Below the pieces are notes generated by a model, which was not told the origin of the DNA, did no database searches, and saw nothing but the letters and a program-made list of their open reading frames with translations. Shown one piece after another: positions 3,207 to 60,850 of a stretch of 63,844 nucleotides of DNA (position 1 is its first letter; each line of letters opens with the position of its first letter). The position numbers and the translations under genes were made by a program. The DNA is taken from UHGV virus genome UHGV-0109393. One strand, 5' to 3'. This DNA is from a virus.

Positions 3207-4721
3207 TTAAATACTTCCCGCGTTATACCAAGTGCCATTGATACAATACTGCACAGGTCTTGCCTGAGTTGTATCAATAAGTTCGTCCTTATTTGAGTTG
3301 ATTGAGGCAGTAACAACATAACCAGATTTATCGTTCCAACCAGGACCATTCCATGTTTGCACTGACGATTTTGTACCTAATCGAATACCTGTAATAAATC
3401 GTGAATTACATTCTGCTTTGGTATATGCACCAACATCTCCCGCTGATGGCTTACGTGTTGTAGTGTAAAATTCCGACCAGTCGGCTTCAAAGCCATAACC
3501 GTCACGCGCAGAACGATAATAAATACCGCCGTTCTTATAATTCACGCGGAACTGAACAGCCGGACAACTACCAGCTCCCATATAAAAATGAAGAATTAAC
3601 GTAGATGCTCCACCAATATTTGCGTTATAAACCCCGCTAATTGAGTTCCATCCAACAGCTTTGTCATTTCCAACTGTGCTTCCTGTCTGCCCTAAAGCAA
3701 ATGCAGGTTGCTGGTTTTTTGTGCTGTAGTCGCGCCGCCAGCCTGGGGCGTAATCTGCGCCATGGTTTATATAAGTAAATTGCGCATTAGTGGTGCCACC
3801 ACCGGTGGAAGTGCTCGGGGTGGTTACACGGATGGTCATGGCACCTTTATTACCCATAACCTCAATAACGCAACCTGCAAGATGAATAGTTCCACAGCCA
3901 GTATCGGTAATAATTTTATTATTGCCGTATGACCATGAACATTTGCACATCCAGTATGGGTGATTGAATGCCCCTTGAGAATCCAGCCATTCAATCAATT
4001 GTGCCGTTGTCCAGTTCCCTGCCCCTGTACTAATAGCACTGTGAAAAGCGCGACATGCACCAATATTTTTTGTGAAGGTATCTTTTCCTGGAATATCTGC
4101 GCCGTTCTGGTTTTTCTGCAATGATCCAGCGGCTAGTTCTACGGTTTGCTCAAGATTTAAATTTTCAGCCGTTAGCTCAATATTTTTAGAACCATCAAAC
4201 GAAACACCGTTAATAGTGCGCGCCGTCTGCAATCTGGTCGCCGTAGCAGCATTGCCGGAGGTATCCTGATCCCCTTTGGCATTGACGCCGGGAATTGAAT
4301 CTTTTGACGTATAGACCTGCGCCCATTCAGACCAGTTGGCAGAATCAGTATCCCGCCGCGAACGGATATGTACGGGCGCATGGGCACCGCTCGTGCCACT
4401 CCAGCCAATGAATAACTCACCTTCGCCAGCAGCGGTGGCACCTTTGAGGTGAAGCACATTGCCATAGGGGGAAGGGTAGCCATTGTTGTATGCCTCATAC
4501 AGCTGAATCCCGGACGTTCCCTGTGCATTCGCCCCCAGGGCCGTTACGCGACCGCGCGATACCAGAGTATTGATATTAATGTCACCAGAACCATCGAACC
4601 TGACGCCATTAATGTTTATGGCTGTTTTCAATTTCGTCGCGGTGTCGGCGTTCCCCGCCAGCGCCCCGGTGATCCCGCCATTGAAAGTCTGGCGCGCACT
4701 CCATGTGTTAGCCGTACTCAA
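3207..4721 (-). CDS. Alternative tail fibre variable cassette (S'v), not joined to the constant part in this orientation
   Basis: 504-aa ORF whose N-terminal region ([18 protein letters not shown]) is encoded by the right inverted repeat and matches the S region at the window start; carries the same [29 protein letters not shown] motif as S. Confidence 0.7.
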
Positions 4722-13560: not shown

Positions 13561-14523
13561 GTGAATATTTTAAATTCAATTTCAGTAACTTTCAACACTT
13601 CTGAGTATAAAAACAACACTGAATACCACAAAAAAATCAAAGGTCATCAGTTGAGTTTTTTTGCTCGTCATAGCGGTTTTCTTTCCCCTTCACATAGCGC
13701 CATTATTGCCGAGTTCGCCAACCTGGCAGGAGCTACCGATGAATACATGATCCGTCGCTCATATGCTGATATGTCCGAGATTACAGGACGCAGTATTTCT
13801 ACTGTGCGCCGGGCATTTGCTGAAGCGACGAAGTGCGGAATGCTTGTTAAGCAACATCAGGTAGCGAATAACAATGCTCAGGTGTGTAACGTATACCGGT
13901 TTACAACACAATTTCTCCACTTCATTCATGTAGCAATGGAGATAGGGGGTAAGCAGGGCATCAAATTTGCGAACGCCACAAAACTGGTTAAGCAGTTGAT
14001 TTCAAAGGTTCGGTATTTTTTTGAAACTGGGAACCCCCTGTTCAAATTGAACAAGTCCCCCCATGTTCAAAATGAACAGCCAATAGAAAATAAGAGTCAC
14101 TCTATAGCCAAAAGAAGAGAAAGATCATGCGCGGTTCAGCCAAAGGCTTCACCAGCGGATAGTTCTCAAGCGGATAATGGGATGCTGGATAAAAAACCAG
14201 TAATCAGGGAAGAACATACCAACCACTGCCTGGCGGCGGCAAAAGCGAGAGCTGCAAAGCGTCGTTCAGACGAGGGGCACGCAAAACGGCAGGCTCTGTA
14301 TCGTACCGCTGAAAAGCTGGCAAAAAAATTTGCATGGATACGTAGTGCCGCTACCGCAGTGAATAAGCCTAAACAATCCAGTGCCCTGGATTTCTCAATG
14401 GATTATTCTGGCTCCCAGGGGTGTGCAACCATTGGTGAAGCCTTTGACCTGATGAAACAGCGTGGCTATCGGTCTGAATTTGACCGGGAGGATTGGTCAA
14501 TCCCTGCGGGATTTAGGGGATGA
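13561..14523 (+). CDS. Hypothetical protein with a probable helix-turn-helix region
   Basis: 320 aa; segment MSEITGRSISTVRRAFAEATKCGML looks HTH-like; function unknown. Confidence 0.4.
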   Translation: MNILNSISVTFNTSEYKNNTEYHKKIKGHQLSFFARHSGFLSPSHSAIIAEFANLAGATDEYMIRRSYADMSEITGRSISTVRRAFAEATKCGMLVKQHQVANNNAQVCNVYRFTTQFLHFIHVAMEIGGKQGIKFANATKLVKQLISKVRYFFETGNPLFKLNKSPHVQNEQPIENKSHSIAKRRERSCAVQPKASPADSSQADNGMLDKKPVIREEHTNHCLAAAKARAAKRRSDEGHAKRQALYRTAEKLAKKFAWIRSAATAVNKPKQSSALDFSMDYSGSQGCATIGEAFDLMKQRGYRSEFDREDWSIPAGFRG

Positions 14524-14839
14524 CCTGTGTGTCTACAAAACATCCCAATGATCGGAAAATGTTCTCTCGATGATTTGTATTAGAAAATTAATTTGCTGTT
14601 TCTAAATCGGAATGTATGATCTGCATCATCGACTGAAGTCATCCATTGCTGAAATTTTTAGTTGATCTTCCATGTTTTCAGGCTTATATTCATGCCGTCG
14701 TAGCAAATTCTGCGACCAGGTTTGACAGCCTGAATGTTAGTGCGGACAACCGCAGATTTCCGATATTGCGGTATTTTTGTGTCCGTAAACCGCGTTACGC
14801 CCGAATTATGGTGGGGCGTGATGGGGAGGCTTAGGCCTG

Positions 14840-14910
14840 CTGGTTTCACTAACGCCAGTCTGTCAACCCTGTCACGTCCTGCCACCTGTTTGACAGCGGG
14901 TAGCAGGTTG
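14840..14910 (+). ncRNA. Candidate c4-type antisense RNA with target sites (module 1); boundaries approximate
   Basis: GTTTGACAGC occurs at 14720 and 14889; its near-complement TCTGTCAACC sits between them at 14858; a second pair is CCTGCCACC / GGTAGCAGG; all lie just upstream of the icd-like RBS. Confidence 0.3.
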
Positions 14911-14936
14911 TTAAACCTGTTAGTGAGGCCGTAACT

Positions 14937-15161
14937 ATGGTTAATGCCAATCCTTGCTCACGTCCAGAATTCATCTGGCGTTTTCACTCCCTGCAAAAAC
15001 ACTGCGATCACTTCGCAATTGCCGCAACTGAAAAAGAAGCCCGTTCTCTGATCCCTGATCAGTATGGCGTTCTCACTGGTCGTTTCTCTACTTCCCCACA
15101 ACCAAACACCAATCCCTGGTATCGCAATATTACCAATCCCGGCATTGCGGAGGCTCACTGA
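14937..15161 (+). CDS. Icd-like small protein
   Basis: 74 aa; stop overlaps the ant start (ATGA); paralogue of 51063..51278 (shared EFIWRF...QKH...AATE-EAR motif). Confidence 0.45.
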   Translation: MVNANPCSRPEFIWRFHSLQKHCDHFAIAATEKEARSLIPDQYGVLTGRFSTSPQPNTNPWYRNITNPGIAEAH

Positions 15162-15868
15162 TGGATATCTGCATTCTCGAAAAGCCATCAATGACCAGCA
15201 TTGAGATCGCGGAGCTGGTGGGAAAACGTCATGACAATGTGAAACGCACTATTGAGACATTAGCCAAAGGTGGCGTTATTGCTCGTCCTCAAATTGAGGT
15301 TTTCGAAAAAATCAATAACTTAGGACTACGGCGTAGTGTTGAGGCTTACGTCTTCGAAGGCGAGCAAGGCAAGCGCGATAGCATTATCGTCGTCGCGCAG
15401 CTCTCTCCCGAATTCACCGCCCGGCTGGTGGACCGCTGGCGCGAACTGGAAGAACAAGTACGCCAGCCGTTGACCGAAATAGAGATGATCGCCGCAATGG
15501 CTGCAAATGCAGTTCAGCAGCAAAAGCGGCTTCATGCTGTTGAGTCAAAGGTTAGCCAGGTCGCTGAAACCGTCGAGCAAATCAAGAAAGGCAATATTCC
15601 GGAAGGCTACATTGGCTACCGACAGCTGGCGGCGAAATGTGGCCTGACTGAAGCCAAATGTCGCAACCTGGTTAACGCTTACCGGATTCCCACCGATACA
15701 CATGAGTTTTTAACTCCAGAGGGGGTATTGTCGCGTCGTTCCATCGTGGCCTTATCTCCCTTCATGAATGCTTTTAACCGGATGATGTCGGAGGCTGAAC
15801 ACCGAGGAAAACGCTGGTATCACCCCAAAATGGGGCAATTCCAGGTGATCGGTTGGGGAGGTGAATGA
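15161..15868 (+). CDS. Antirepressor, Rha/Ant family (paralogue 1)
   Basis: N-terminal MTSIEIAELVGKRHDNVKRTIETL is the Rha-family signature; paralogue of 51278..52204. Confidence 0.7.
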   Translation: MDICILEKPSMTSIEIAELVGKRHDNVKRTIETLAKGGVIARPQIEVFEKINNLGLRRSVEAYVFEGEQGKRDSIIVVAQLSPEFTARLVDRWRELEEQVRQPLTEIEMIAAMAANAVQQQKRLHAVESKVSQVAETVEQIKKGNIPEGYIGYRQLAAKCGLTEAKCRNLVNAYRIPTDTHEFLTPEGVLSRRSIVALSPFMNAFNRMMSEAEHRGKRWYHPKMGQFQVIGWGGE

Positions 15869-16065
15869 TGGACATCATGCAGGCGGTAAAAAAAATCAGG
15901 GAAGAACAGGCTGAAGTGTGCCGCCGTAAAGCATGGAGTGTTGGTGTATGGGCCTGGCCTGATAATTACTCTACTACCGGATGGTTTTGTATTAATGGAC
16001 TCCAGATCCGGGAAGTTTATTTATCGACGGCTGATATAGTCGGTAATGATTGGATCGTGACTTGA
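15865..16065 (+). CDS. Hypothetical small protein
   Basis: 66 aa, start overlaps the ant stop. Confidence 0.3.
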   Translation: MMDIMQAVKKIREEQAEVCRRKAWSVGVWAWPDNYSTTGWFCINGLQIREVYLSTADIVGNDWIVT

Positions 16066-16073
16066 TGCGTGAT

Positions 16074-16098
16074 GCCCCGGCCTGGCCGGGGCTTTTTT
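16074..16098. terminator. Bidirectional rho-independent terminator
   Basis: GCCCCGGCCtgGCCGGGGC followed by TTTTTT. Confidence 0.7.
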
Positions 16099-16583
16099 CA
16101 TGCCTCATTAGTTGAGGTTGCTGCGTTTCCGACTGGTAACAGAGCGGTATTGCGTGGTTCGCCAGCAGGCCAGCGATAGCCAGACACTCTTGATGTTGGG
16201 AATGCGCGAATATTAACCGCATCCCCCTGGTTCCCACCCAGGACAAGCAGATCGCCATTGGCGCGGCGTCCGACAACGAAGCCTACGTGCCCACCGCCTA
16301 CGCGGGTAAATACAACGATACATCCGTATGCCGGTGTATCTAATTTCTCGCCCCAATCCAGATAGGATTTTGCCGACTCAAATCTTGTTGAGCGGATGCC
16401 TACACGTTCCAGCATTGCACCGACAAATGCTGCGCACCACGGCGTTTCATCGTCTTTAATTCCGCCGCGCTTGATGTCGCGCCAGAACTGAACGATTTCA
16501 GGGTTGTGTTTAGCGCCTTTTATTTCAGTCAGGCCAATGTGCTTACGGGCTTCAATTAGCCAGCGAGGTTCAATGTTTGCCAT
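16098..16583 (-). CDS. Putative peptidoglycan hydrolase (CHAP/NlpC-P60-like) endolysin candidate
   Basis: 161 aa with conserved Cys (PWCAAFV) and His (GGGHVGFVVG) typical of this phage hydrolase class. Confidence 0.5.
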   Translation of the reverse strand: MANIEPRWLIEARKHIGLTEIKGAKHNPEIVQFWRDIKRGGIKDDETPWCAAFVGAMLERVGIRSTRFESAKSYLDWGEKLDTPAYGCIVVFTRVGGGHVGFVVGRRANGDLLVLGGNQGDAVNIRAFPTSRVSGYRWPAGEPRNTALLPVGNAATSTNEA

Positions 16584-19700: not shown

Positions 19701-22700
19701 AATGCTGTGGAAATGGGGCGTCTTGACCTGGCATCTGGCAAACACCGTGACGCGCAGAAGAAGAACAAGATTAAGGACCAGGCCGCAAATACCGGTACAA
19801 CGAAGAAGCAGAATATCCCGTACTTTGAGGATATGAACTTCGATAGCGTAATTGCCGACGAAGGACATAACTACCGCAACTCCTTTAGCGCCGGGCGCGA
19901 AGCGGGGCAACTGGCATATTTGCCTAACCCGGCAGTATCCAAAATGGCCCGCGACATGGCTGTAAAAGCTGCGTACATGATGAAACGCAACAACGGGCGT
20001 GGTGTGGTTATGCTGACGGCAACACCGCTGGTGAACAGCCCGATTGATGCTTTCAACATGCTGTCTACTGTCATTCCGCAGGAAGAGTGGATGCGCATGG
20101 GTATTGTTACGCCGGATGATTTCGTTCGCGTGTTCGGTAAAACAGCCACAGTTCAGGTTCAGAAAATTTCCGGTGAGGTGGAAGAGAAGCAGGGACTGGT
20201 GGGCTTCCAGAACCTGGATGGTCTGCGTGGTATTTTCCATCGCTGGACTACTCTGAAGACTGCTGCGGACGTCGGGGCGACGGTAAAAATCCCTGATATT
20301 GTCGAGAATACCTTGCAGATCCCGATGACAGGAGAGCAAGAGGCCATTTACGAAGAACTTCGTAAGCGTGCACAGGAGTTAAGTAGTAAAGATGCGCTGA
20401 CGGTCGATGAAAACGGGCATATCACAAACGAAAAACCGGATGATTTCATCTTCTCCATCATCCGCGACATGGATAAGGTTGCTATAGATCCTGATCTGTA
20501 TGCCAGTGCGATTACATTCCAGTTCCCCGTTGAGCTTGCAGACAAGGTAAAAGCTATTGCTGATGCCCTGCCAAAAGTAGCTGGCGGTAAAGTGGCAGAT
20601 GATGCAGACGAGGCCGAAGAAGATGGCGCTGGTGGGCTGGTCAGTACGCGTACCAGCAAGGTAGTGAAGACCACCTTTAGCGAACATCCGTCGCATGTTG
20701 AAATACGTGCTGGCATTGAACTGGAAGCTGAAATACTGAAGGCCATTGCGGCTGCCGGTATTGATATGCAGCAGGTATCACACCCCATCCCGCCGAAGTA
20801 TGCCGCGCTGGTCGAAAACCTTCGTGAAGGTCTGAAGAACGGTAAACAAATCGTCTTCATTGATGAAAAAGCCCAGCACCAGAAGCTGCGCCGTATTATT
20901 GCCAGTGCACTGCAAATGCCGGAGCAGGAGATAGGCATTATCAATGCGACGACAGTTAGCCAGGCTGGCGGCGTCAAGCTGAAGAAGGTGAATAAGCCGA
21001 CTGAACCTACGCCAAATAAAAACGGTGAATACAAAGAAGGTGCATGGCAAACCTACTACAGCAAACTTGCCCAATATGAGGATTATCTCTCAGCTAAAAA
21101 TGATGCTGGCCTTGAGGGCATGGAAGGTATTGCCGCCGACTATAACGAAGGTCGCACGCGCATCATAATCTGTAACAAGAAGGCTGAAGTAGGTATTAAC
21201 TTGCACATCGGTACAACCGATATCCACCATCTGACACTACCCTGGACTCCTGCCAGTATCGACCAACGTAATGGGCGCGGCGCTCGGGTAGGCTCACCAC
21301 AAGAAAAGGTCAATGTTCACTACTATTGTGGCAAAGGCACATTTGATGACTTCCGTCTGGATACGCTGAAACGTAAGAAGGACTGGATCAATATGGTGAT
21401 GACCTCAGACATGTCAGAGATCGCCAATGGTGATGCGGATGACGCAGATGAACGCGCCATTATGCTGGCGGCAAATCCGGAAGAACGCCGTGCAATCATG
21501 AGTCGTCAGGCGCAAGAGCGTGAAGAACGTCTGAAACTGAAAGCCCTACGCGAAGCCAATAATGCTCTCGATAACTACCTGAAAGCGGCGAATGCTGCCG
21601 GGAAAGATATCGGCATGATGGAGACAGAACTGAAAAGCGCGATGGAGCAGGTAGAGCATTACCAGCGCAATCTTGACGACCTGATTAAAGCGGGGACGAA
21701 CAGGAACGGGCAGAAATATGTTCTGGAACAGTTGCGAGACTACAGAAAACGTGTGCGGGAGCTACGCTTTGCGATCACCAGAGCTAAAGACGCTGACACC
21801 GTTATGAAACGTTCTCGTGGTGATCTGGAACGTGCGATTAAAGCCGGGGTTCTGGAGCTTGATGCCGATGTATTGCAGAACCCACAGGAGTATGTACGCA
21901 CTGAGAAAAATATCTTGTTGCACAAGGGCAGCCATTATCGCGCGATCATCGATGAGAATCACAATACGACAGCAATTGTTCGTGTTACCGCCATTGATGC
22001 GGAAAGGGGCGGGTGTACGTGCCGCATATCCTGGCTGGATGTGGCTAGTCGTTACTCTCGTTCTCCGGGGACGGCATTATTTTTGCCCTTTAACCTGATA
22101 ATTGAATCGGTAACCTTTGAAGAGGGAGTTGCAGAATCGCGTGAAACAGCTGCACGTGGTGTTCAATGCCACCAGCTATCAACAACACTTACGCGCGATC
22201 AGTTCTATGATGCTATTCGCAATGGGGTAATGAATGTCACTGCCGGGAAGCCTGGTAGAGTATGGGGCGGTGGTTCAGCTATTAAATACTGGGCTTATCG
22301 CACAGATGATGGTCAGATCGCGCTGTCATCGACCTATGATGGCGTGATAGGCCAAAAAATCGGGCGAGCATCGGATATAGCACCTGAGCGATGGATATAT
22401 CCTGATGGCAACGACGAGGCGCTGAAGCGTGAAGTGGCAAAAATACAAGCCAGTGATAACCCGCTGAATGTCGTGGACGGTGAGGGATTCCTCCAGGCAT
22501 TGTATGGATATGATTACATCCAGGGAATGCAGGCATGGGGGTCACAGGCCACGATGGATGATGTTTCCCAGGAGTTTGAAAACTGGATGGCAGGGCGTGG
22601 TTTGTCCGGTCGCTCACTTAATAAAGTTACTTCTGAAGATATTCTTAGCCTGTTCCGTAAACCGTCCGGAGAAGGGCTGGAATCTTTCTGGAAGACCGTG

Positions 22701-28012: not shown

Positions 28013-28089
28013 GATGGTGTAGCTCAGTAGGATAGAGCAGCAGCCTTCTAAGCTGTCGGTCGGTGGTTCGAATCCACCCACCATCGCCA
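28013..28089 (+). tRNA. tRNA-Arg (anticodon TCT)
   Basis: Hand-folded cloverleaf: acceptor GATGGTG/CACCATC, D-arm GCTC..GAGC, anticodon loop CTTCTAA, T-loop TTCGAAT, encoded CCA; resembles E. coli argU. Confidence 0.85.
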
Positions 28090-28091
28090 AT

Positions 28092-28167
28092 GCCGGTTTA
28101 GCTCAGTTGGTAGAGCGCCTGCCTTGTAAGCAGGATGTCAGCGGTTCGAGTCCGTTAACCGGCACCA
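28092..28167 (+). tRNA. tRNA-Thr (anticodon TGT)
   Basis: Acceptor GCCGGTT/AACCGGC, anticodon loop CTTGTAA, T-loop TTCGAGT, encoded CCA. Confidence 0.85.
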
Positions 28168-28168
28168 A

Positions 28169-28255
28169 CACAACAGGTAAGGGTATTTTGCGACGTCGGA
28201 GATCGCCGTGCTTGGCAGAGGGTTCGAATCCCTACGAAGTACCCTTACCGTTGTG
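28169..28255 (+). other. tRNA-like hairpin element B (pseudo-tRNA or structured RNA)
   Basis: 16-bp stem (CACAACAGGTAAGGGTA / TACCCTTACCGTTGTG, one mismatch) enclosing a T-arm-like AGGGTTCGAATCCCT; cannot be folded into a canonical cloverleaf. Confidence 0.4.
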
Positions 28256-28632
28256 ATGAAGTGCAGCTCTTTGAAGCAACCAGAAGATAAGCATCTGGCT
28301 TCACAACATAAACCGCAGGAACGACCAATAAACGGTAGTCCGTATGGAGAATACCCCGTTGAGGAAGAGGCCTGGCCGGAACCGTAACCGGCACTACAAC
28401 GTTGAGAACACTGACGTAACGGGGTCATATCCCAATCTACGAATAAATGTTGCGTTGCAGCGTGACAACCAGTGTTCTCAACGTTGTGGTGGATTCGCAG
28501 ACTGATGCGATAGCTTTCTTGGATGTTAGGGAAATGCGGCCGCAAACCTTCCCTTTCGCGAGCGGTGATCGTCCGTAGTCCTAATTGGCTGCACCGTATG
28601 CCGGAGATTCAGTACCGGCCACCACAACGGCC

Positions 28633-28719
28633 GGAGAGTAGGGAGCATGGTGCTCAAGCGGTCTTGAAAACCGTCCCATTGCGCAAGCGATGATGGTTCG
28701 ATTCCATTACTCTCCGCCA
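28633..28719 (+). tRNA. tRNA-Ser (anticodon TGA), long variable arm
   Basis: 87 nt; acceptor GGAGAGT/ACTCTCC; anticodon arm GCGGTCTTGAAAACCGT nearly identical to E. coli tRNA-Ser(UGA) as recalled; T-loop TTCGATT, CCA. D-arm fold uncertain by hand. Confidence 0.6.
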
Positions 28720-28993
28720 GCGCAACGTTAAGAGTATTTGGCTAATTAAGCGAATGCCGGAAGCAGAACCGGATCACCAAATGCGTACAGGCGTCATCGC
28801 CGCCCAGCCAGCCAAGTGCTCTTACCATTGCGGTGAATGCGGCTAAGCGCACGCGGAACAGTTAAAACAATTTTCCTCAATAGTGAAGTCAAACATCCCG
28901 GCGTTAATTGTTAACTGGTTAACGTCACCGGGAGGCACCCGGCACCGCAATCTAACAGCAATGGCGTTTTGTCTTAAAAGGTAGCTGCAAGTG

Positions 28994-29122
28994 ATGGATT
29001 TTTGGGCCTTTGCCGATAAGAACCCTGGTTGGACATTTTTATTTCTGCTGGTGGTTGCATATGGGATCGAGCAAGCGGCAAAAGCCTTACGCGGTTCTGG
29101 CAAAAAGCGTAAGCGGAATTAA
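28994..29122 (+). CDS. Candidate small membrane peptide (42 aa), hydrophobic core with basic tail
   Basis: MDFWAFADKNPGWTFLFLLVVAYGIEQAAKALRGSGKKRKRN; not in the ORF track (under 60 aa); lies between the second AGGCA hairpin and tRNA-Ile2. Confidence 0.25.
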   Translation: MDFWAFADKNPGWTFLFLLVVAYGIEQAAKALRGSGKKRKRN

Positions 29123-29131
29123 CAGTAATCT

Positions 29132-29206
29132 GGCCCTTTAGCTCAGTGGTTAGAGCTGGCGACTCATAATCGCACGGTCACCGGTTCAAGTCCGGTAGGG
29201 GCCACC
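29132..29206 (+). tRNA. tRNA-Ile2 (anticodon CAT, ileX-like lysidine type)
   Basis: Near-identical architecture to E. coli ileX as recalled (GGCCC-TTAGCTCAGTGGTTAGAGC...CTCATAA...GGTTCAAGTCC...GGGGCCACCA). Confidence 0.8.
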
Positions 29207-29660
29207 ATATTTGGTTGTAACACGGCGTATGGCACATGCGTCGTTAGCGGTCTGGTGACGTTAAAGGGGTTACCTTTTCCCCTAGCTCAGGCAACAAACC
29301 AGGTAGCCGGAATGTGCAAGCCCCGTTCATATCGTCGGACCGAGGACTCACCATCCTGGCGATTCGGTGTGACAGCCGGAAGAGTACGGCGCACAACAGG
29401 AAAAGGCGTTTAATTAGCGTGAGCGCCGTTTCCGTTGTGGTAATTGCGGCTATGCGCTCGTGACGAAGCCATTTTCATTCACTACGTTCTGATAAGTGAC
29501 GTCGCCAGGAGTGGCTAACCTGGCAGGTGGAGGCACCACCGCCACAACTCCTTTCAATTCATCATATAGCCGCTCAGGCTGTAACCCTTAATTAATACGA
29601 AGTTTCGACATCTCTATCGGTTTAACCGAGGGATGGTCGCGCGTGTAAAAAGGAGACGTT

Positions 29661-30628: not shown

Positions 30629-30642
30629 CGTTAGATGAATGG

Positions 30643-30660
30643 AATTAATTTTCTAATATA
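30643..30660. promoter_or_regulatory. Operator-like site (variant)
   Basis: AATTAATTTTCTAATATA. Confidence 0.35.
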
Positions 30661-30736
30661 ACCAACTTTTTGCCAGTCTATACAGAAATAACATTCTCAT
30701 TATCATCCCCTCGGTCATTTCCTGCCTGGGGGATTA

Positions 30737-34023: not shown

Positions 34024-35061
34024 TTACCAGAGTTTAGCGGCGTGCTGTGTTTGGGAGAAAGTGAACCCGTAACGTTCTTCTATGGTTTTACCGTATCTTT
34101 TCCGCGCGTCTGTCAGTTTTATGCCTGTCAGGTCATCTCCGGATGTCATCATTACGTCTAACAACTCCAGATCCATTTTATTCAGTCGCGCCATCGCTTC
34201 GCGTGCTGTCTGTATTTTACGCTCAATGATATGGCGAATAGCCGGATCGGCTTCCTCAAGCATTTTGGCTGATTTGTTCTTTAAGCTCTCATTGCGGATG
34301 TCGATGTTTCGCAAGATGTATGACTTCGCAACATAGCTTGGTTGGTGTTTCTCCAGATCGCGAACGCGATAGAGACTAAAGTCACCAAGCAGGCCGCAAG
34401 GTATCGACTCAACCCCAGAATAAATAGTAATGCTGCGACGTTCGCCGACATTATTAACAACGGGCACTGTGGTGTTCGGAAGTTTTGCGAACACTAAGGC
34501 TCCGTGTGCGCCTACCCTGAATCGTGACAGAGCATTGCTGCCTTCAATGTTTGTTGTAAGCACTACATCTGTGTATCCATCTTTGCGCGCCCGGTAAACT
34601 TCCCCTTCAGGTTCTGATGCGAAAAAACGGCGCTCTTCTTCAAGTGCACCAACAATCTGCGAAAATATCTTGTTTTTCAGGCTTTTCTTTATAATTGCAT
34701 CATATTTTTTGAGCAGATTTTCGCGCGTAAATGAGCGGGTGGTGGTCGCGCTTTGCACAACAATATGCGTGCTTTGATTTGTGTCCTCGATAATGAATGG
34801 GATCGGAGAATATACAGACTCAACAATGTTAGACGCTTTGCCGTCAGCGTTACGGCACAAGTCAACAAAGGCTTTCCATTCTGTGAGGCACTTTTCAGCT
34901 TCTTCTAGCACATTCTGATCATGTGTTAGTGCAACATGGCGGAATTCCTCGCCGGAATAACTGGTATCATGGAAAACAGAGTTTGCGACCACCAGCTCTT
35001 TCCACCGTTCAGCGGTTTGCAGGAACCGTTTGTACTCTTTCTCGATCGACTTCTTACTCAT
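34024..35061 (-). CDS. Hypothetical protein in the c1-equivalent position (between terminase and lox-cre)
   Basis: 345 aa; an operator-like site lies 14 bp upstream of its start codon; no recognisable motif. Confidence 0.45.
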   Translation of the reverse strand: MSKKSIEKEYKRFLQTAERWKELVVANSVFHDTSYSGEEFRHVALTHDQNVLEEAEKCLTEWKAFVDLCRNADGKASNIVESVYSPIPFIIEDTNQSTHIVVQSATTTRSFTRENLLKKYDAIIKKSLKNKIFSQIVGALEEERRFFASEPEGEVYRARKDGYTDVVLTTNIEGSNALSRFRVGAHGALVFAKLPNTTVPVVNNVGERRSITIYSGVESIPCGLLGDFSLYRVRDLEKHQPSYVAKSYILRNIDIRNESLKNKSAKMLEEADPAIRHIIERKIQTAREAMARLNKMDLELLDVMMTSGDDLTGIKLTDARKRYGKTIEERYGFTFSQTQHAAKLW

Positions 35062-35446: not shown

Positions 35447-36475
35447 ATGGGTGAATTAATTATCTCTGGCAGTTCCGGTGGTTTTCTGCGCAACATTGGC
35501 AAAGAGTACCAGGAAGCCGCAGAAAACTTTATGCGGTTCATGAATGACCAGGGGGCTTATGCGCCGAATACTCTGCGCGACCTCCGGTTAGTGTTTCATT
35601 CCTGGGCGCGCTGGTGTCACGCTCGCCAGCTTGCCTGGTTTCCGATCTCACCAGAAATGGCCCGCGAGTATTTTCTTCAGCTGCATGATGCCGATCTGGC
35701 TTCGACCACCATTGATAAGCACTACGCCATGCTGAACATGCTGCTTTCGCATTGTGGCCTTCCGCCACTTTCGGATGATAAAAGTGTTTCTCTGGCTATG
35801 CGGCGCATCCGGCGCGAAGCGGCAACTGAAAAAGGCGAACGAACAGGCCAGGCTATTCCTTTGCGGTGGGATGATCTGAAACTGATCGACGTCCTGTTGT
35901 CCAGGTCAGAACGGCTGGTGGACCTGCGCAACCGGGCTTTTCTCTTTGTTGCATACAATACGCTGATGCGTATGTCGGAAATCTCGCGTATTCGCATAAG
36001 AGATCTGGACCAAACAGGTGACACTGTCACGTTGCATATTTCACACACGAAGACAATAACGACCGCAGCCGGGCTTGATAAAGTGCTTTCCCGTCGCACT
36101 ACTGCTGTGCTGAATGACTGGCTGGAGGCTTCCGGGCTTCGTGAACATCCTGACGCGGTGCTGTTCCCGCCGGTACACCGTAGCAATAAGGCCAGGATTA
36201 CGGCAACGCCCCTTACTGCACCTGCAATGGAGAAAATATTCAGCGACGCCTGGGTGTTGCTGAATAAAGGAGATGCTACGCCAAACAAAGGAAGATACCG
36301 GACGTGGACCGGGCATAGTGCACGCGTCGGGGCCGCTATCGATATGGCTGAAAAGCAGGTGTCTATGGTGGAGATTATGCAGGAAGGAACCTGGAAGAAA
36401 CCGGAAACACTTATGCGGTATCTGCGCCGTGGCGGCGTGTCTGTGGGGGCTAATAGCCGCCTGATGGATTTATAA
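35447..36475 (+). CDS. cre: Cre-like tyrosine recombinase (divergent from P1 Cre)
   Basis: 342 aa; C-terminal WTGHSARVGAAIDMAE...LMRYL aligns with Cre's WSGHSARVGAARDMA...VMNYI; similar length and domain order. Confidence 0.8.
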   Translation: MGELIISGSSGGFLRNIGKEYQEAAENFMRFMNDQGAYAPNTLRDLRLVFHSWARWCHARQLAWFPISPEMAREYFLQLHDADLASTTIDKHYAMLNMLLSHCGLPPLSDDKSVSLAMRRIRREAATEKGERTGQAIPLRWDDLKLIDVLLSRSERLVDLRNRAFLFVAYNTLMRMSEISRIRIRDLDQTGDTVTLHISHTKTITTAAGLDKVLSRRTTAVLNDWLEASGLREHPDAVLFPPVHRSNKARITATPLTAPAMEKIFSDAWVLLNKGDATPNKGRYRTWTGHSARVGAAIDMAEKQVSMVEIMQEGTWKKPETLMRYLRRGGVSVGANSRLMDL

Positions 36476-36494
36476 ATTAAATTTCTAACACATC
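36475..36494. promoter_or_regulatory. Operator-like site
   Basis: AATTAAATTTCTAACACATC, immediately after the cre stop. Confidence 0.45.
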
Positions 36495-49427: not shown

Positions 49428-49592
49428 AACATAAGCACTGCGAAAAGCTCAATACCAAGCTCAAGTAGCGCCAACGCCCCGAAAACCAACACATAGAACA
49501 GGCCAATCTCATTCACAGATGGCTGGTGGATCGCACTTAAAGCTATAAGCATCATGTCCTCCAAACAGTTATCAGGAATGATATTAATGTTT

Positions 49593-49625
49593 TGTGTTAG
49601 AAAATCAATTTTGAATATCTAACCA
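49593..49625. promoter_or_regulatory. Operator-like site(s) in a divergent promoter region
   Basis: TGTGTTAGAAAATCAATTTT plus ATATCTAACCA; between the leftward operon and ref. Confidence 0.45.
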
Positions 49626-50267: not shown

Positions 50268-50582
50268 GTTGAATTGTAAATTTCCCCGATGTACATTCAC
50301 TACCGATTGGCACACCGGTCAACTTTTTGAGACAAACTGTTTAGTTTTTCGTATTATTGCCGCCGCTATACCTATGGCGGTGCAATATAGGTGGCTGAAA
50401 AGCCCCCGTTGACTCACGGTGTTCCAGCCTTTATTGCGCCGCCACCAGACCGTGGAACAGTCAATGGCGGCTCCGAAAGCAAGGAGTCACTACACTATGA
50501 ACAACTACAGTCTTTTACCATCACTCTTCGTCCACCACTCACGCGATAATCTGCATTCTTTACTCGCGCTGGGGGTGTCAAA

Positions 50583-50750
50583 ATGACGGTTCGCTACCTC
50601 AACTTTCAAATCAAGAACATTACTGGCGGTTGCTATGACTGGTTTGTCACTCTCGGAAAAGAAGTGATCACCGGGAAGCTGGATGAAGTGAAAGCTAAAG
50701 CAATGGCCTACGCCTGCAAGCAAGCCCGGAAGAAATCCGCCAAAGCATAA
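50583..50750 (+). CDS. Candidate small protein (55 aa) upstream of immI-like module 2
   Basis: ATG preceded by GGGGGTG; MTVRYLNFQIKNITGGCYDWFV...; not in the ORF track (under 60 aa). Confidence 0.3.
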   Translation: MTVRYLNFQIKNITGGCYDWFVTLGKEVITGKLDEVKAKAMAYACKQARKKSAKA

Positions 50751-50855
50751 AATACTGACTGTTGCGCCCTGGCATTATCGTGGGGTATATTTCTACGGCA
50801 CCTTAGAAAAACGGGTGCCGGGATTGGAACCCCGGATAATGCAAAAGGCGACACA

Positions 50856-50877
50856 GACGCCGAAAGCGTCTTTTTTT
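50856..50877 (+). terminator. Rho-independent terminator
   Basis: GACGCcgaaaGCGTC followed by TTTTTTT. Confidence 0.7.
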
Positions 50878-50899
50878 GTGTCATGCCATCGCACAGCCA

Positions 50900-51035
50900 T
50901 ACGTAGCGTTTAGCTCAGAGATCAATGGTAGTGCTGGCTGGGCTGCCGAAAGGCAGGCCGGTTCCCTTTTGCGCCGGTAGTTCCAACCCAGTCAGTGCTA
51001 CCGCCATTGAGATTGGAACCTCACGCGGTAGCTCC
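50900..51035 (+). ncRNA. Candidate c4-type antisense RNA with target sites (module 2); boundaries approximate
   Basis: GATTGGAACC at 50821 and 51011 with its complement GTTCCAACC at 50980; second pair GCTACCG (50997) / CGGTAGC (51026); tRNA-like TAGCTCAGAG stretch; immediately upstream of the icd-like RBS. Confidence 0.3.
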
Positions 51036-51062
51036 TTAAATTAGCAAAAGGAGGCTGCCATT

Positions 51063-51278
51063 ATGGCTACTACCCCTACCCCAACTCATTCTGAATTTAT
51101 CTGGCGTTTCTATTCCTGCCAAAAACACCTCTATATCTGCGTCATGGCTGCTACCGAAGCAGAAGCGCGCTCATACCTTCCCGAAGAACCCTGCATTTTT
51201 GCTGCTCGCTTCACTCTTGATGCGATGGAGATCCTCAATTACTGGAATCTGCCGATGAACTGCGTGGAGGTGCACTGA
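51063..51278 (+). CDS. Icd-like small protein (paralogue 2)
   Basis: 71 aa; paralogue of 14937..15161; stop overlaps the ant start. Confidence 0.45.
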   Translation: MATTPTPTHSEFIWRFYSCQKHLYICVMAATEAEARSYLPEEPCIFAARFTLDAMEILNYWNLPMNCVEVH

Positions 51279-52204
51279 TGAATCTGTCCATCTCTCAAAA
51301 AGCGACAATGACCAGCATTGAGATCGCGGAACTGGTAGGTAAGCGCCCTGATAACGTTAAACGCACCATTGAACACCTGGCGGAACGGGGCGTAATATCT
51401 TTTCCTCAAATTGAGGAAAAGCCCACCGCAGGCCGCCCGGCGAGCTATTACGTCTTCGAAGGCGAGCAAGGCAAGCGCGATAGTATTGTCGTCGTCGCGC
51501 AGCTCTCTCCCGAATTCACCGCCCGGCTGGTGGACCGCTGGCGCGAACTGGAGAATGCCCGGGTACAGTTAAAATCAAAAGCCGAAATTCTGGCTGAAAT
51601 GGCGCAAATGCATCTTGAGCATGAACGCCGGATCAACGCCGTAAATGCCCAGGTAGCCGAGGTATCAGCACAAGTATCGATGGTCGCTGAAACACTCGAG
51701 CAAATAAAGAAAGGCAATATTCCGGAAGGCTACATTGGCTACCGCCAGCTGGCGGCGAAATGTGGCCTGACTGAAGCCAAATGCCGAAACCTGGTCAACG
51801 CTTACCGGATTCCCACCGATACGCATGAGTTTTTAACTCCCGATGGTTTGCTTGCGCGACGCTCCATTGTGGCCATGGCCCCCTTCCGGAAAGCCTTTAA
51901 GCAGGTGATGTCGGAGGCAGAACCACGCAATAAACGCTGGTATCATCCAAAGATGGGGATGTTTCAGGCAATCCACCATCCTGTGCCTGAAAGTCCAAAG
52001 GCAAACCTGTCGTTGCATACCGCCAGAGAGAGGATTAAAACAGGCTATGCAATCGTATGCCGTCGAGCATCCTGGCCTGAAGGTGTATGGGTGTGGCCCG
52101 AAGGTGGATCACGAAAGCACTGGCGCACTATCCGGGATGGGAAAATCCATGCGATTGATTTAGCTCCAGAGGATGTTGTTGCTACGGACTGGATTGTTAG
52201 TTAA
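51278..52204 (+). CDS. Antirepressor, Rha/Ant family (paralogue 2)
   Basis: MTSIEIAELVGKRPDNVKRTIEHL; the first ~100 and last ~80 residues are near-identical to 15161..15868, with a different middle. Confidence 0.7.
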   Translation: MNLSISQKATMTSIEIAELVGKRPDNVKRTIEHLAERGVISFPQIEEKPTAGRPASYYVFEGEQGKRDSIVVVAQLSPEFTARLVDRWRELENARVQLKSKAEILAEMAQMHLEHERRINAVNAQVAEVSAQVSMVAETLEQIKKGNIPEGYIGYRQLAAKCGLTEAKCRNLVNAYRIPTDTHEFLTPDGLLARRSIVAMAPFRKAFKQVMSEAEPRNKRWYHPKMGMFQAIHHPVPESPKANLSLHTARERIKTGYAIVCRRASWPEGVWVWPEGGSRKHWRTIRDGKIHAIDLAPEDVVATDWIVS

Positions 52205-52212
52205 TTACTGTT

Positions 52213-52234
52213 GCCCCGGCCTGTCCGGGGCTTT
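52213..52234 (+). terminator. Rho-independent terminator
   Basis: GCCCCGGCCtgtCCGGGGC followed by TTT; same hairpin type as after ant paralogue 1. Confidence 0.6.
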
Positions 52235-52263
52235 AACTACTAAATAACCGGATTCTCCGCACG

Positions 52264-52548
52264 ATGAAGAAAATAGATTTCACTTACTCTGCTGCCACAA
52301 TCCAGCGACGTTTCAGTCTCATAAGGGAAGTGGAACTATCAAAAAACTGCTATCAAATTCTACTGGATGAAGAGTTTTCACTGATGGTTATAGCAGAAAA
52401 ATTGGCTATGCCGAATGACCGGCACAAGGTCATAGCCAGCCTGGATCTGGTGACAAACAGATACTGGGAATACGAGGAACTACTTGAAGTTGGCTTGATA
52501 CGCGAGATGATAGAACAGGCTGTTCCCCTCCACTTACAGCAACCATAA
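52264..52548 (+). CDS. Hypothetical protein
   Basis: 94-aa ORF. Confidence 0.35.
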   Translation: MKKIDFTYSAATIQRRFSLIREVELSKNCYQILLDEEFSLMVIAEKLAMPNDRHKVIASLDLVTNRYWEYEELLEVGLIREMIEQAVPLHLQQP

Positions 52549-52684
52549 TTGAAAGGTCTTAACGATAGTCTGCCACGAATAGTTACTTCCACTGCCTAAA
52601 GTTATTTAATTGCATTACAAAGTGTAAATTAGTAACATTAGAATCTCACACAGCACTATAACTATATGTTTTTTATGTAAAAGG

Positions 52685-60810: not shown

Positions 60811-60850
60811 ATTTGTGTTAGATAATTAACATGTATTTTCTAACACAAAT
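60811..60850. promoter_or_regulatory. Operator-like dyad (two inverted TGTTAGA half-sites)
   Basis: ATTTGTGTTAGA...TCTAACACAAAT, a perfect 12-bp inverted repeat with 16-bp spacer, just upstream of rdgC. Confidence 0.5.

Follow-up and report, generated by a model that had tools for sequence, protein, structure and literature searches.

A second immunity I-type module with an IsrK/C4 RNA cassette in a D6-like plasmid prophage

The DNA analysed here is the 63,844-nucleotide (nt) stretch of virus genome UHGV-0109393, hereafter the window, which by its sequence is a relative of phage D6, a P1-like plasmid prophage. In phage P1, immunity I (ImmI) relies on a small antisense RNA that blocks an operon for a cell-division inhibitor and an antirepressor. 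The window carries two loci of this plan, module 1 at 14684-16092 and module 2 at 50750-52236, the second of which is the subject of this report. Both modules lie on the plus strand. Our analysis indicates that module 2 is a genuine, intact and orthogonal second ImmI-type module, which is common, and was previously annotated, in D6-like and P1-like plasmid prophages of Escherichia coli.

Module 2 opens with a candidate sigma-70 promoter (TTGCGC, an 18-nt spacer and TATATT; 50762-50791) that would place the transcript start near G50798, the same position at which the match to the Rfam isrK model begins. Promoter-like pairs occupy the equivalent position in Punavirus JL22 and RCS47 (TTGCGC...TATGCT), in the Stx phage F039 (TTGACT-17-TATATT) and in phiP27. 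The IsrK-family leader small RNA (sRNA) extends from 50798 to 50876 and matches RF01394 over its full length (model positions 1-77 of 77) with 62.5 bits, the gathering score being 50. Its hairpin loop contains a first site, a1 (GATTGGAAC, 50822-50830), a second site, b1 (GCAAAAGG), follows at 50841-50848, and the last element of the leader is an intrinsic terminator, detected by the terminator scan, with its stem at 50855-50871 and a run of seven Ts.

A C4-type antisense RNA (50921-51008) begins 44 nt downstream of the IsrK RNA and matches RF01695 over model positions 1-87 of 87, with 76.7 bits against a gathering score of 45; the covariance-model E-values, scaled to the whole window, are 3e-13 and 5e-11. 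Two stretches of C4, the b' loop (CCTTTTGC, 50965-50972) and a' (GTTCCAACC, 50980-50988), are both unpaired in its minimum free energy fold (-46.4 kcal/mol). In the fold of 50990-51068, a hairpin at 50997-51032 with the stem GCTACCGC/GCGGTAGC displays in its 8-nt loop the target site a2 (GATTGGAACC, 51011-51020), which is complementary to a'. The other target site, b2 (GCAAAAGG, 51044-51054), overlaps the Shine-Dalgarno (SD) sequence GGAGG of the downstream icd-like open reading frame (ORF), and CCTTTTGC at 50965 is antisense to both copies of GCAAAAGG, at 50841 and 51044. The loop-target duplexes are predicted at -9.7 kcal/mol for a':a2 and -13.9 kcal/mol for b':b2, and the b' duplex extends into the SD sequence.

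The original prediction, which described this locus as an immunity-I-like module with its own antisense and target motifs, named sequences that are all present, with the first copy of GATTGGAACC starting at 50822 and not at 50821. This 10-mer occurs exactly twice in the window (50822 and 51011), both times inside module 2. One of the proposed pairings had to be reassigned: GCTACCG (50997) and CGGTAGC (51026), which had been taken for antisense and target, are the arms of the hairpin described above, and since a2 lies in the loop of the stem GCTACCGC/GCGGTAGC, they form a stem in cis that presents a2. It is CCTTTTGC/GCAAAAGG that makes up the second antisense/target pair; this b' pair had been overlooked, as had the intrinsic terminator that separates the upstream sites from C4 (50855-50871).

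The icd-like ORF (51063-51278) encodes 71 amino acids (aa), belongs to phrog_1426 (E 1e-40) and is 56% identical to P1 Icd, the module-1 protein being 54% identical. Its stop codon overlaps the start of the next gene as TGATG at 51276-51280. That gene, ant (51278-52204), encodes a 308-aa putative antirepressor of the Rha/Roi family, assigned, like its counterpart in module 1, to phrog_63 'anti-repressor Ant' (E 1.5e-64 for module 2), with a fused C-terminal domain of ~66 aa (phrog_7385). The nearest relatives of this protein carry the names Roi or DNA-binding protein. At the end of the module stands a GC-rich hairpin, GCCCCGGCCTGTCCGGGGC (52213-52231), followed by TTTAAC in place of a good T-run.

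Module 1 follows the same plan: an a1b1 leader (14684-14736, Rfam c4-a1b1 motif), C4 (14804-14889, Rfam, 68.2 bits, gathering score 45), icd (14937-15161), ant (15161-15868), a separate 66-aa ORF that overlaps ant (15865-16065) and a terminator (16074-16092). That the two modules are paralogues, as first proposed, is borne out by C4 matches in both, by Icd-like proteins that are 37% identical and by Ant proteins that are 68% identical over 237 aa. The proposal that the paralogous proteins share both ends and differ in the middle was too simple, as their relationship is mosaic: the last ~66 aa of module-2 Ant match the separate 66-aa ORF of module 1 with 37% identity. Two blocks of the ant genes are 95-100% identical in nucleotide sequence (15346-15450 with 51448-51552, and 15576-15700 with 51699-51830), the remainder ranging from 28 to 77%, and the longest exact shared runs reach 64 nt, which suggests gene conversion or recombination between the modules. 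The modules also share the stem of their terminal hairpins, with GCCCCGGCC/CCGGGGC at 16074/16086 and at 52213/52225 and 79% identity over 48 nt of the surrounding region; the common terminator type that had been claimed applies to this stem, while the T-run and the call by the terminator scan belong to module 1 only. Beyond the ant genes, a short icd stretch and the 3' ends, blastn leaves the two modules unaligned, and hence their RNA cassettes are not recent copies of each other.

The pairing sites of module 1 are those of phage P1 (a, TTGACAG/CTGTCAA; b, GTTAGTG/CACTAAC) and are unlike those of P7 (TTAGCAG and GATTGTG), while module 1 of D6 has the b site ACTTACG where the window has GTTAGTG. 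Since the pairing sequences differ fully between modules 1 and 2, each C4 should control its own operon only. Duplex energies calculated from the loops alone agree with this, at -9.2 to -15.0 kcal/mol for cognate and -4.1 to -8.7 kcal/mol for non-cognate combinations, and predict no cross-reaction; duplexes of whole C4 and leader molecules were uninformative because they ignore internal structure. Given this energy gap, the different specificity originally claimed for the two modules stands as a prediction. Both modules are intact, neither being a pseudogene, and their pairing sequences are not identical, so that neither of the findings named beforehand as speaking against the original prediction applies. 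The dual anti-immunity capacity that it also suggested is conjectural.

The pairings were also followed through the relatives of module 2. A 24-nt core of its C4 retrieved 71 viral contigs, in which 75 instances of the module could be parsed; these fall into four classes, combining GGAA or GAGA at the a sites with GCAAAAGG or GTCAAAGG at the b sites. Complementarity is complete in all 75 for a':a2, b':b2 and b':b1, and in 73 for a':a1. In the P1-type cassette, all four matches are perfect in each of 100 parsed instances, which represent nine classes. Pairs were counted formally in 31 distinct leaders, including those of the distant Stx phage F039 and phiP27: C4 and a2b2 are 100% paired with 7 of 15 pairs changed on both sides (four of these doubly changed pairs being between b2 and b', which are likewise 100% paired), and a1b1 and C4 are 99.6% paired, again with 7 of 15 pairs changed on both sides. 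Controls in which the partners were slid against each other gave 28-57% pairing and 0-1 such pairs. The parts of the module, their order, their complementarity and its co-variation are thus direct observations, and decoy, antisense RNA and target change jointly in some 175 natural instances with two exceptions at a1.

Both exceptions are IMG/VR contigs (L047 and L053) with a mismatch of a1 to a' and a2, GAGA standing with GGAA in one and the reverse in the other; they resemble recombinants whose breakpoint falls between the IsrK part and C4. The window and D6 also differ in specificity, with GGAA and GAGA, respectively, at all three a sites of module 2. Among 23 two-module elements, 16 combinations of the four sites were found in 24 module pairings, the surplus pairing arising from a single contig with two P1-type C4s. 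That contig, IMGVR_UViG_2713896909_000009 (96.7 kb; L057, L144 and L199), contains two P1-type C4s of differing specificity and one of the module-2 type, and therefore three C4 modules as assembled. Such reshuffling of a few specificity bases offers a simple, testable account of how heteroimmunity could be maintained between related phage-plasmids living in the same hosts.

The presence of two antisense-controlled modules in one element, which the original prediction regarded as unusual, proved to be ordinary in this group. The region 50400-52600 is 98.2% identical in nucleotide sequence, over 94% of its length, to positions 73626-75841 of Escherichia phage D6 (MF356679), and the module-1 stretch 14500-16120 is 94.3% identical to D6 19734-21354, such that D6 possesses both modules. 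In the D6 record, both loci (orf83/orf82 and orf19/orf18) have an icd homologue with a 'putative anti-repressor' after it, and the counterpart of the module-2 Icd-like protein is described as 'similar to P1 gene icd'. For the D6-like plasmid pYU39_89, a paper of 2019 already noted a second c4/icd region (PMC6799933). Furthermore, the P1-like RCS47, JL22 and pTZ20_1P have an equivalent extra module between pacB and c1 besides their regular ImmI, and the extra ant of the RCS47/JL22 type is also in print (PMC6906374).

Among complete E. coli genomes, 318 of 5426 contain the interval 50750-52236 at least in part, 86 of them covering >=80% of it, and 437 of the 446 matching places are plasmid-borne. 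The 93-kb plasmid NZ_CP162407.1 of E. coli PEC1021 is 100% identical to this interval, while the AR_0119 plasmid is 100% identical in the leader and 95.7% over the wider region. The leader and 5' part of icd (50760-51300) match 348 plasmid records. Of 19 viral contigs of >=75 kb that contain module 2, at least 14 have the P1-type C4 core as well among the matches listed, and both modules occur together in at least 21 viral contigs. D6-like plasmid prophages normally carry module 2, and about 6% of complete E. coli genomes have it in some form. As a feature of this particular window the module is of little importance, its genes being already labelled by standard pipelines.

We consider it quite probable that module 2, made up of an IsrK/C4 control cassette, an icd-like leader ORF and a Rha/Roi-type antirepressor-like gene, functions as a second switch of the ImmI type in a D6-like plasmid prophage. 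Its mechanism can be modelled on P1 and Gifsy-1. Transcription would start at ~50798 from the promoter at ~50762-50791, and most transcripts would end at the terminator (50855-50876), giving an IsrK-like RNA of ~79 nt with the decoy sites a1 and b1. Read-through RNA would carry C4, which in P1 is excised by RNase P, followed by the icd-ant message. The a' and b' sites of C4 would then pair with the loop-displayed a2 and with b2, which covers the ribosome-binding site (RBS), and block translation of icd; as the ant start lies inside the icd stop, translation of ant would be blocked along with it, and the untranslated message may be exposed to Rho termination, as in P1. The IsrK-like RNA could compete for the C4 sites and so turn the operon on, in the manner of short IsrK in Gifsy-1.

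A number of observations weigh against this interpretation. The candidate promoter was missed by a consensus promoter scan, for which it is too weak, and the terminal hairpin at 52213-52231, which has no T-run, was not called by the terminator scan. Neither Ant protein resembles P1 Ant1 (BLASTP E 0.27 for module 2), and the N-terminal Phage_pRha match (PF09669) of module-2 Ant, with 29.5 bits (E 1e-6), falls just below the cutoff of 29.9, the module-1 protein scoring 36.9 bits, above it. Most members of the Rha/Roi group owe their names to homology, and module-2 Ant is a putative antirepressor. The decoy role of the IsrK part is one that we infer ourselves, and the authors of the Gifsy-1 study favour alternative mRNA folds over a C4-type repressor (PMC4825925). 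A literature search found no experimental work on ImmI of D6. Finally, module 2, unlike P1 with its Oc4 and the RCS47/JL22 copies, has no candidate repressor operator directly upstream, the motif TTTGTRTTAGAAAATYAATTT, considered next, having no site within 1.1 kb on that side.

Even with three mismatches allowed, the consensus of the P1 C1 operator is absent from the window. The 21-nt motif TTTGTRTTAGAAAATYAATTT, which resembles the reverse complement of the P1 C1 operator, has six sites where 0.02 would be expected (14574-14594, 30642-30662, 36474-36494, 49591-49611, 60812-60832 and 60829-60849), and one occurrence is an overlapping inverted pair. From its position and this resemblance, we regard the motif as a candidate operator of the D6-type C1 repressor, the C1 homologue encoded by a 345-aa ORF on the minus strand (34024-35061). 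One site (14574-14594) lies upstream of module 1, and another (49591-49611, plus strand) precedes ref, at a distance of 1.2 kb upstream of module 2. With no operator directly at module 2, the module may be driven by its own promoter, by read-through from ref, or by the two together. In the JL22 and RCS47 copies of the module, the P1 C1 operator-like sequence ATTTGCTCTAATAAATTG is found upstream of the isrK promoter (~2910-2927 in L003/L004), as Oc4 is in P1 ImmI; the D6-type copies have no operator at that place.

The most serious rival is that module 2 is mainly an IsrK activator switch of the Gifsy-1 type and not an immunity determinant, in which a stress-dependent promoter and a leader RNA would govern a Rha/Roi-type DNA-binding regulator for induction or lytic growth. 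The Icd-like ORF would then be chiefly a coupling leader and the protein need not act on C1, so that the RNA steps overlap with those set out above and the output differs. The isrK match above its gathering score, the intact terminator and the lack of a repressor operator at module 2 all speak for such a switch, as are the trans-activation and stress induction data from Gifsy-1 (PMC4825925), the Roi and DNA-binding protein names of the closest relatives, and the arrangement in Stx phages and phiP27, where the cassette stands straight before Rha/Roi-like genes without icd. We nevertheless think this possible but rather unlikely, because the strict and combinatorially shuffled alleles fit selection for heteroimmunity, from which an internal stress switch would gain little. 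Module 1, moreover, has the RNA cassette of P1 ImmI, the same type of cargo and a candidate operator, and in Gifsy-1 AnrP itself acted as a derepressor of antQ (PMC4825925).

That module 2 merely duplicates module 1, being redundant or in decay and without a function of its own, appears very improbable. The 95-100% identical ant blocks, with the gene conversion that they suggest, and the loss of the T-run from the terminal hairpin could be read in this way; yet all ORFs are intact, the three-way complementarity has survived the turnover of alleles in 73-75 of 75 relatives, and the full module is found in 86 complete E. coli genomes and in the infectious phage D6. As the RNA cassette comes from a lineage other than that of module 1, a simple duplication does not account for it, and the conservation and co-variation data led us to reject the pseudogene reading. 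Virtually nothing speaks for chance matches in an ordinary intergenic region beyond the shortness of the single motifs (7-10 nt), and this reading is refuted by the whole-window E-values of the covariance models (3e-13 and 5e-11), by a 10-mer placed twice in 63.8 kb and both times in module 2, and by the compensatory changes in relatives.

Returning to the proposed ImmI-type switch, its leader appears to unite two RNA families. In module 1, the isrK model matches the whole of the P1-type a1b1 leader (43.5 bits, E 2e-8), terminator-like hairpin included, and the c4-a1b1 model matches the isrK region of module 2 below threshold (22.4 bits, E 0.0013). The upstream a1/b1 copy of module 2 is an IsrK-family sRNA, and we read IsrK and c4-a1b1 as one family. 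The Salmonella IsrK and the P1 a1b1 leader thus appear to be the same element, and each literature can inform the other. A 2025 review has IsrK and c4 as separate entries and draws no connection between them, and the Gifsy-1 paper does not mention phage P1 (PMC4825925). Records of APSE phage and of Stx phages annotate IsrK and C4 RNAs side by side.

In Gifsy-1, there is read-through past the IsrK terminator into orf45/STnc1160 and anrP, translation of anrP rises more than 100-fold with short IsrK in trans, and anrP is derepressed by mutations at G28 and G31 of IsrK and at the downstream C162 and C159 (PMC4825925). In the Rfam consensus, G28 is part of the a1 loop. Hfq binding and the activation of downstream translation in trans by IsrK have been reported for Gifsy-1 only (PMC4825925). 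Taken together, IsrK and P1 a1b1 may form a single family of anti-antisense decoys that co-evolve with C4 as strictly as the real targets do, with P1/D6-like phage-plasmids carrying one to three decoy-antisense-target locks in which the specificity bases are combinatorially shuffled; we find the case for and against this joint reading evenly balanced. The P1-type lock has 2x6 alleles and the IsrK-type lock 2x2. If the reading is true, a second module multiplies the mutually heteroimmune types in a population, and a function is assigned to the a1 and b1 sites, which are still 'putative' in the P1 record.

Module 2 and the ImmI of P1 and P7 share the order a1, b1, c4, a2 and b2 at the icd RBS, an icd coupled to the next gene, and an antisense RNA of the same family (C4), in which a few loop and target bases set the specificity, as between P1 and P7. 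They differ in their cargo, which is Ant1 in P1 and a Rha/Roi-type protein in module 2, and module 2 is set apart by its strong leader terminator, its IsrK-scoring leader and its unrelated pairing sequences. The upstream promoter of P1 ImmI is overlapped by a C1-controlled operator (Oc4/Op51), whereas module 2 has no operator directly upstream. Their neighbours also differ, being ref and pmgF for module 2 and sim and kilA-repL for P1 ImmI. In phage P22, a small antisense RNA, sar, restrains the antirepressor ant of immI, as is proposed for module 2; the RNA and proteins are unrelated, however, and sar is a cis-antisense RNA from the opposite strand, whereas C4 and its target share a strand.

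The isrK-orf45(STnc1160)-anrP locus of Gifsy-1 likewise has an IsrK-family sRNA with a terminator, followed by a conserved stable RNA region of ~80 nt. In both loci an antirepressor-like gene follows by translational coupling, for which the evidence in module 2 is the codon overlap, and the middle hairpin of IsrK pairs with downstream RNA, as suggested in module 2 by co-variation. Orf45 of Gifsy-1 overlaps its stable RNA region, whereas the coupling ORF of module 2 is a true Icd homologue downstream of C4, and the host element of module 2 is, unlike Gifsy-1, a plasmid prophage. A 39-aa ORF that lies over C4 in module 2 (50925-51044) stops 18 nt before icd and is the positional counterpart of orf45.

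Closer to hand, orf83-orf82 of D6 represent the same locus as module 2, with a different a specificity and a different Ant sequence (89% identity between module-2 Ant and orf82). The extra module of RCS47 and JL22 has an isrK-C4-a2/b2 cassette and 5' icd that are 88-89% identical to 50797-51211 (megablast), with 93-96% identity in the leader (50797-51070, blastn); in these phages and pTZ20_1P, it differs in its genome position, its longer Roi-like cargo and the operator-like ATTTGCTCTAATAAATTG upstream. Stx phages and phiP27 also have this isrK-C4 cassette but no icd, Rha/Roi-like genes following it at once. Similarity to other phage groups runs through the RNA cassette into icd and ends after the first ~110-150 nt of that gene (14677-15048 against P1; 50797-51211 against RCS47/JL22), where recombination breakpoints appear to lie. 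In F039 and phiP27, what is shared reaches from the cassette to the first codons (MAT[IV]P), and a different gene is attached there without any intervening part. The control cassette seems, on this pattern, to move as a unit with exchangeable cargo.

Some annotations over the cassette call for comment. RefSeq plasmids label the 39-aa ORF 'ash family protein', and the D6 record, which has no RNA annotation there, places orf84 over the isrK/C4 region on the opposite strand; the loci concerned are 50925-51044 (plus strand) in the window, 2166-2285 in L201 and 4309-4608 (minus strand) in L001. Both the 39-aa ORF and orf84 look like mis-annotated RNA genes, and orf84 is probably spurious.

The C-terminus of module-2 Ant (51992-52201) and the 66-aa ORF of module 1 (15865-16062) belong to one very small family, in which the pattern CRR..W..GVW.WP...DWIV is conserved. 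A word-index search found six close relatives of this domain, and an exhaustive HMMER search gave five matches, one of them spurious. The possibility of a Tad2-like anti-Thoeris domain (DUF2829, PF11195) was considered and rejected, the Pfam match having an E-value of 0.28 and 12.2 bits, where the cutoff is 25; Tad2 was also absent from the results of a profile search against PDB sequences, and Foldseek with its AF2 model (pLDDT 69) gave nothing below E 1 against the PDB. Elsewhere in the window, four tRNA genes (Arg-TCT, Thr-TGT, Ser-TGA and Met-CAT) lie at 28013-29207, where the D6 record has Ser, Thr and Asn, and the tRNA cluster therefore differs between the window and D6 although the two are close relatives.

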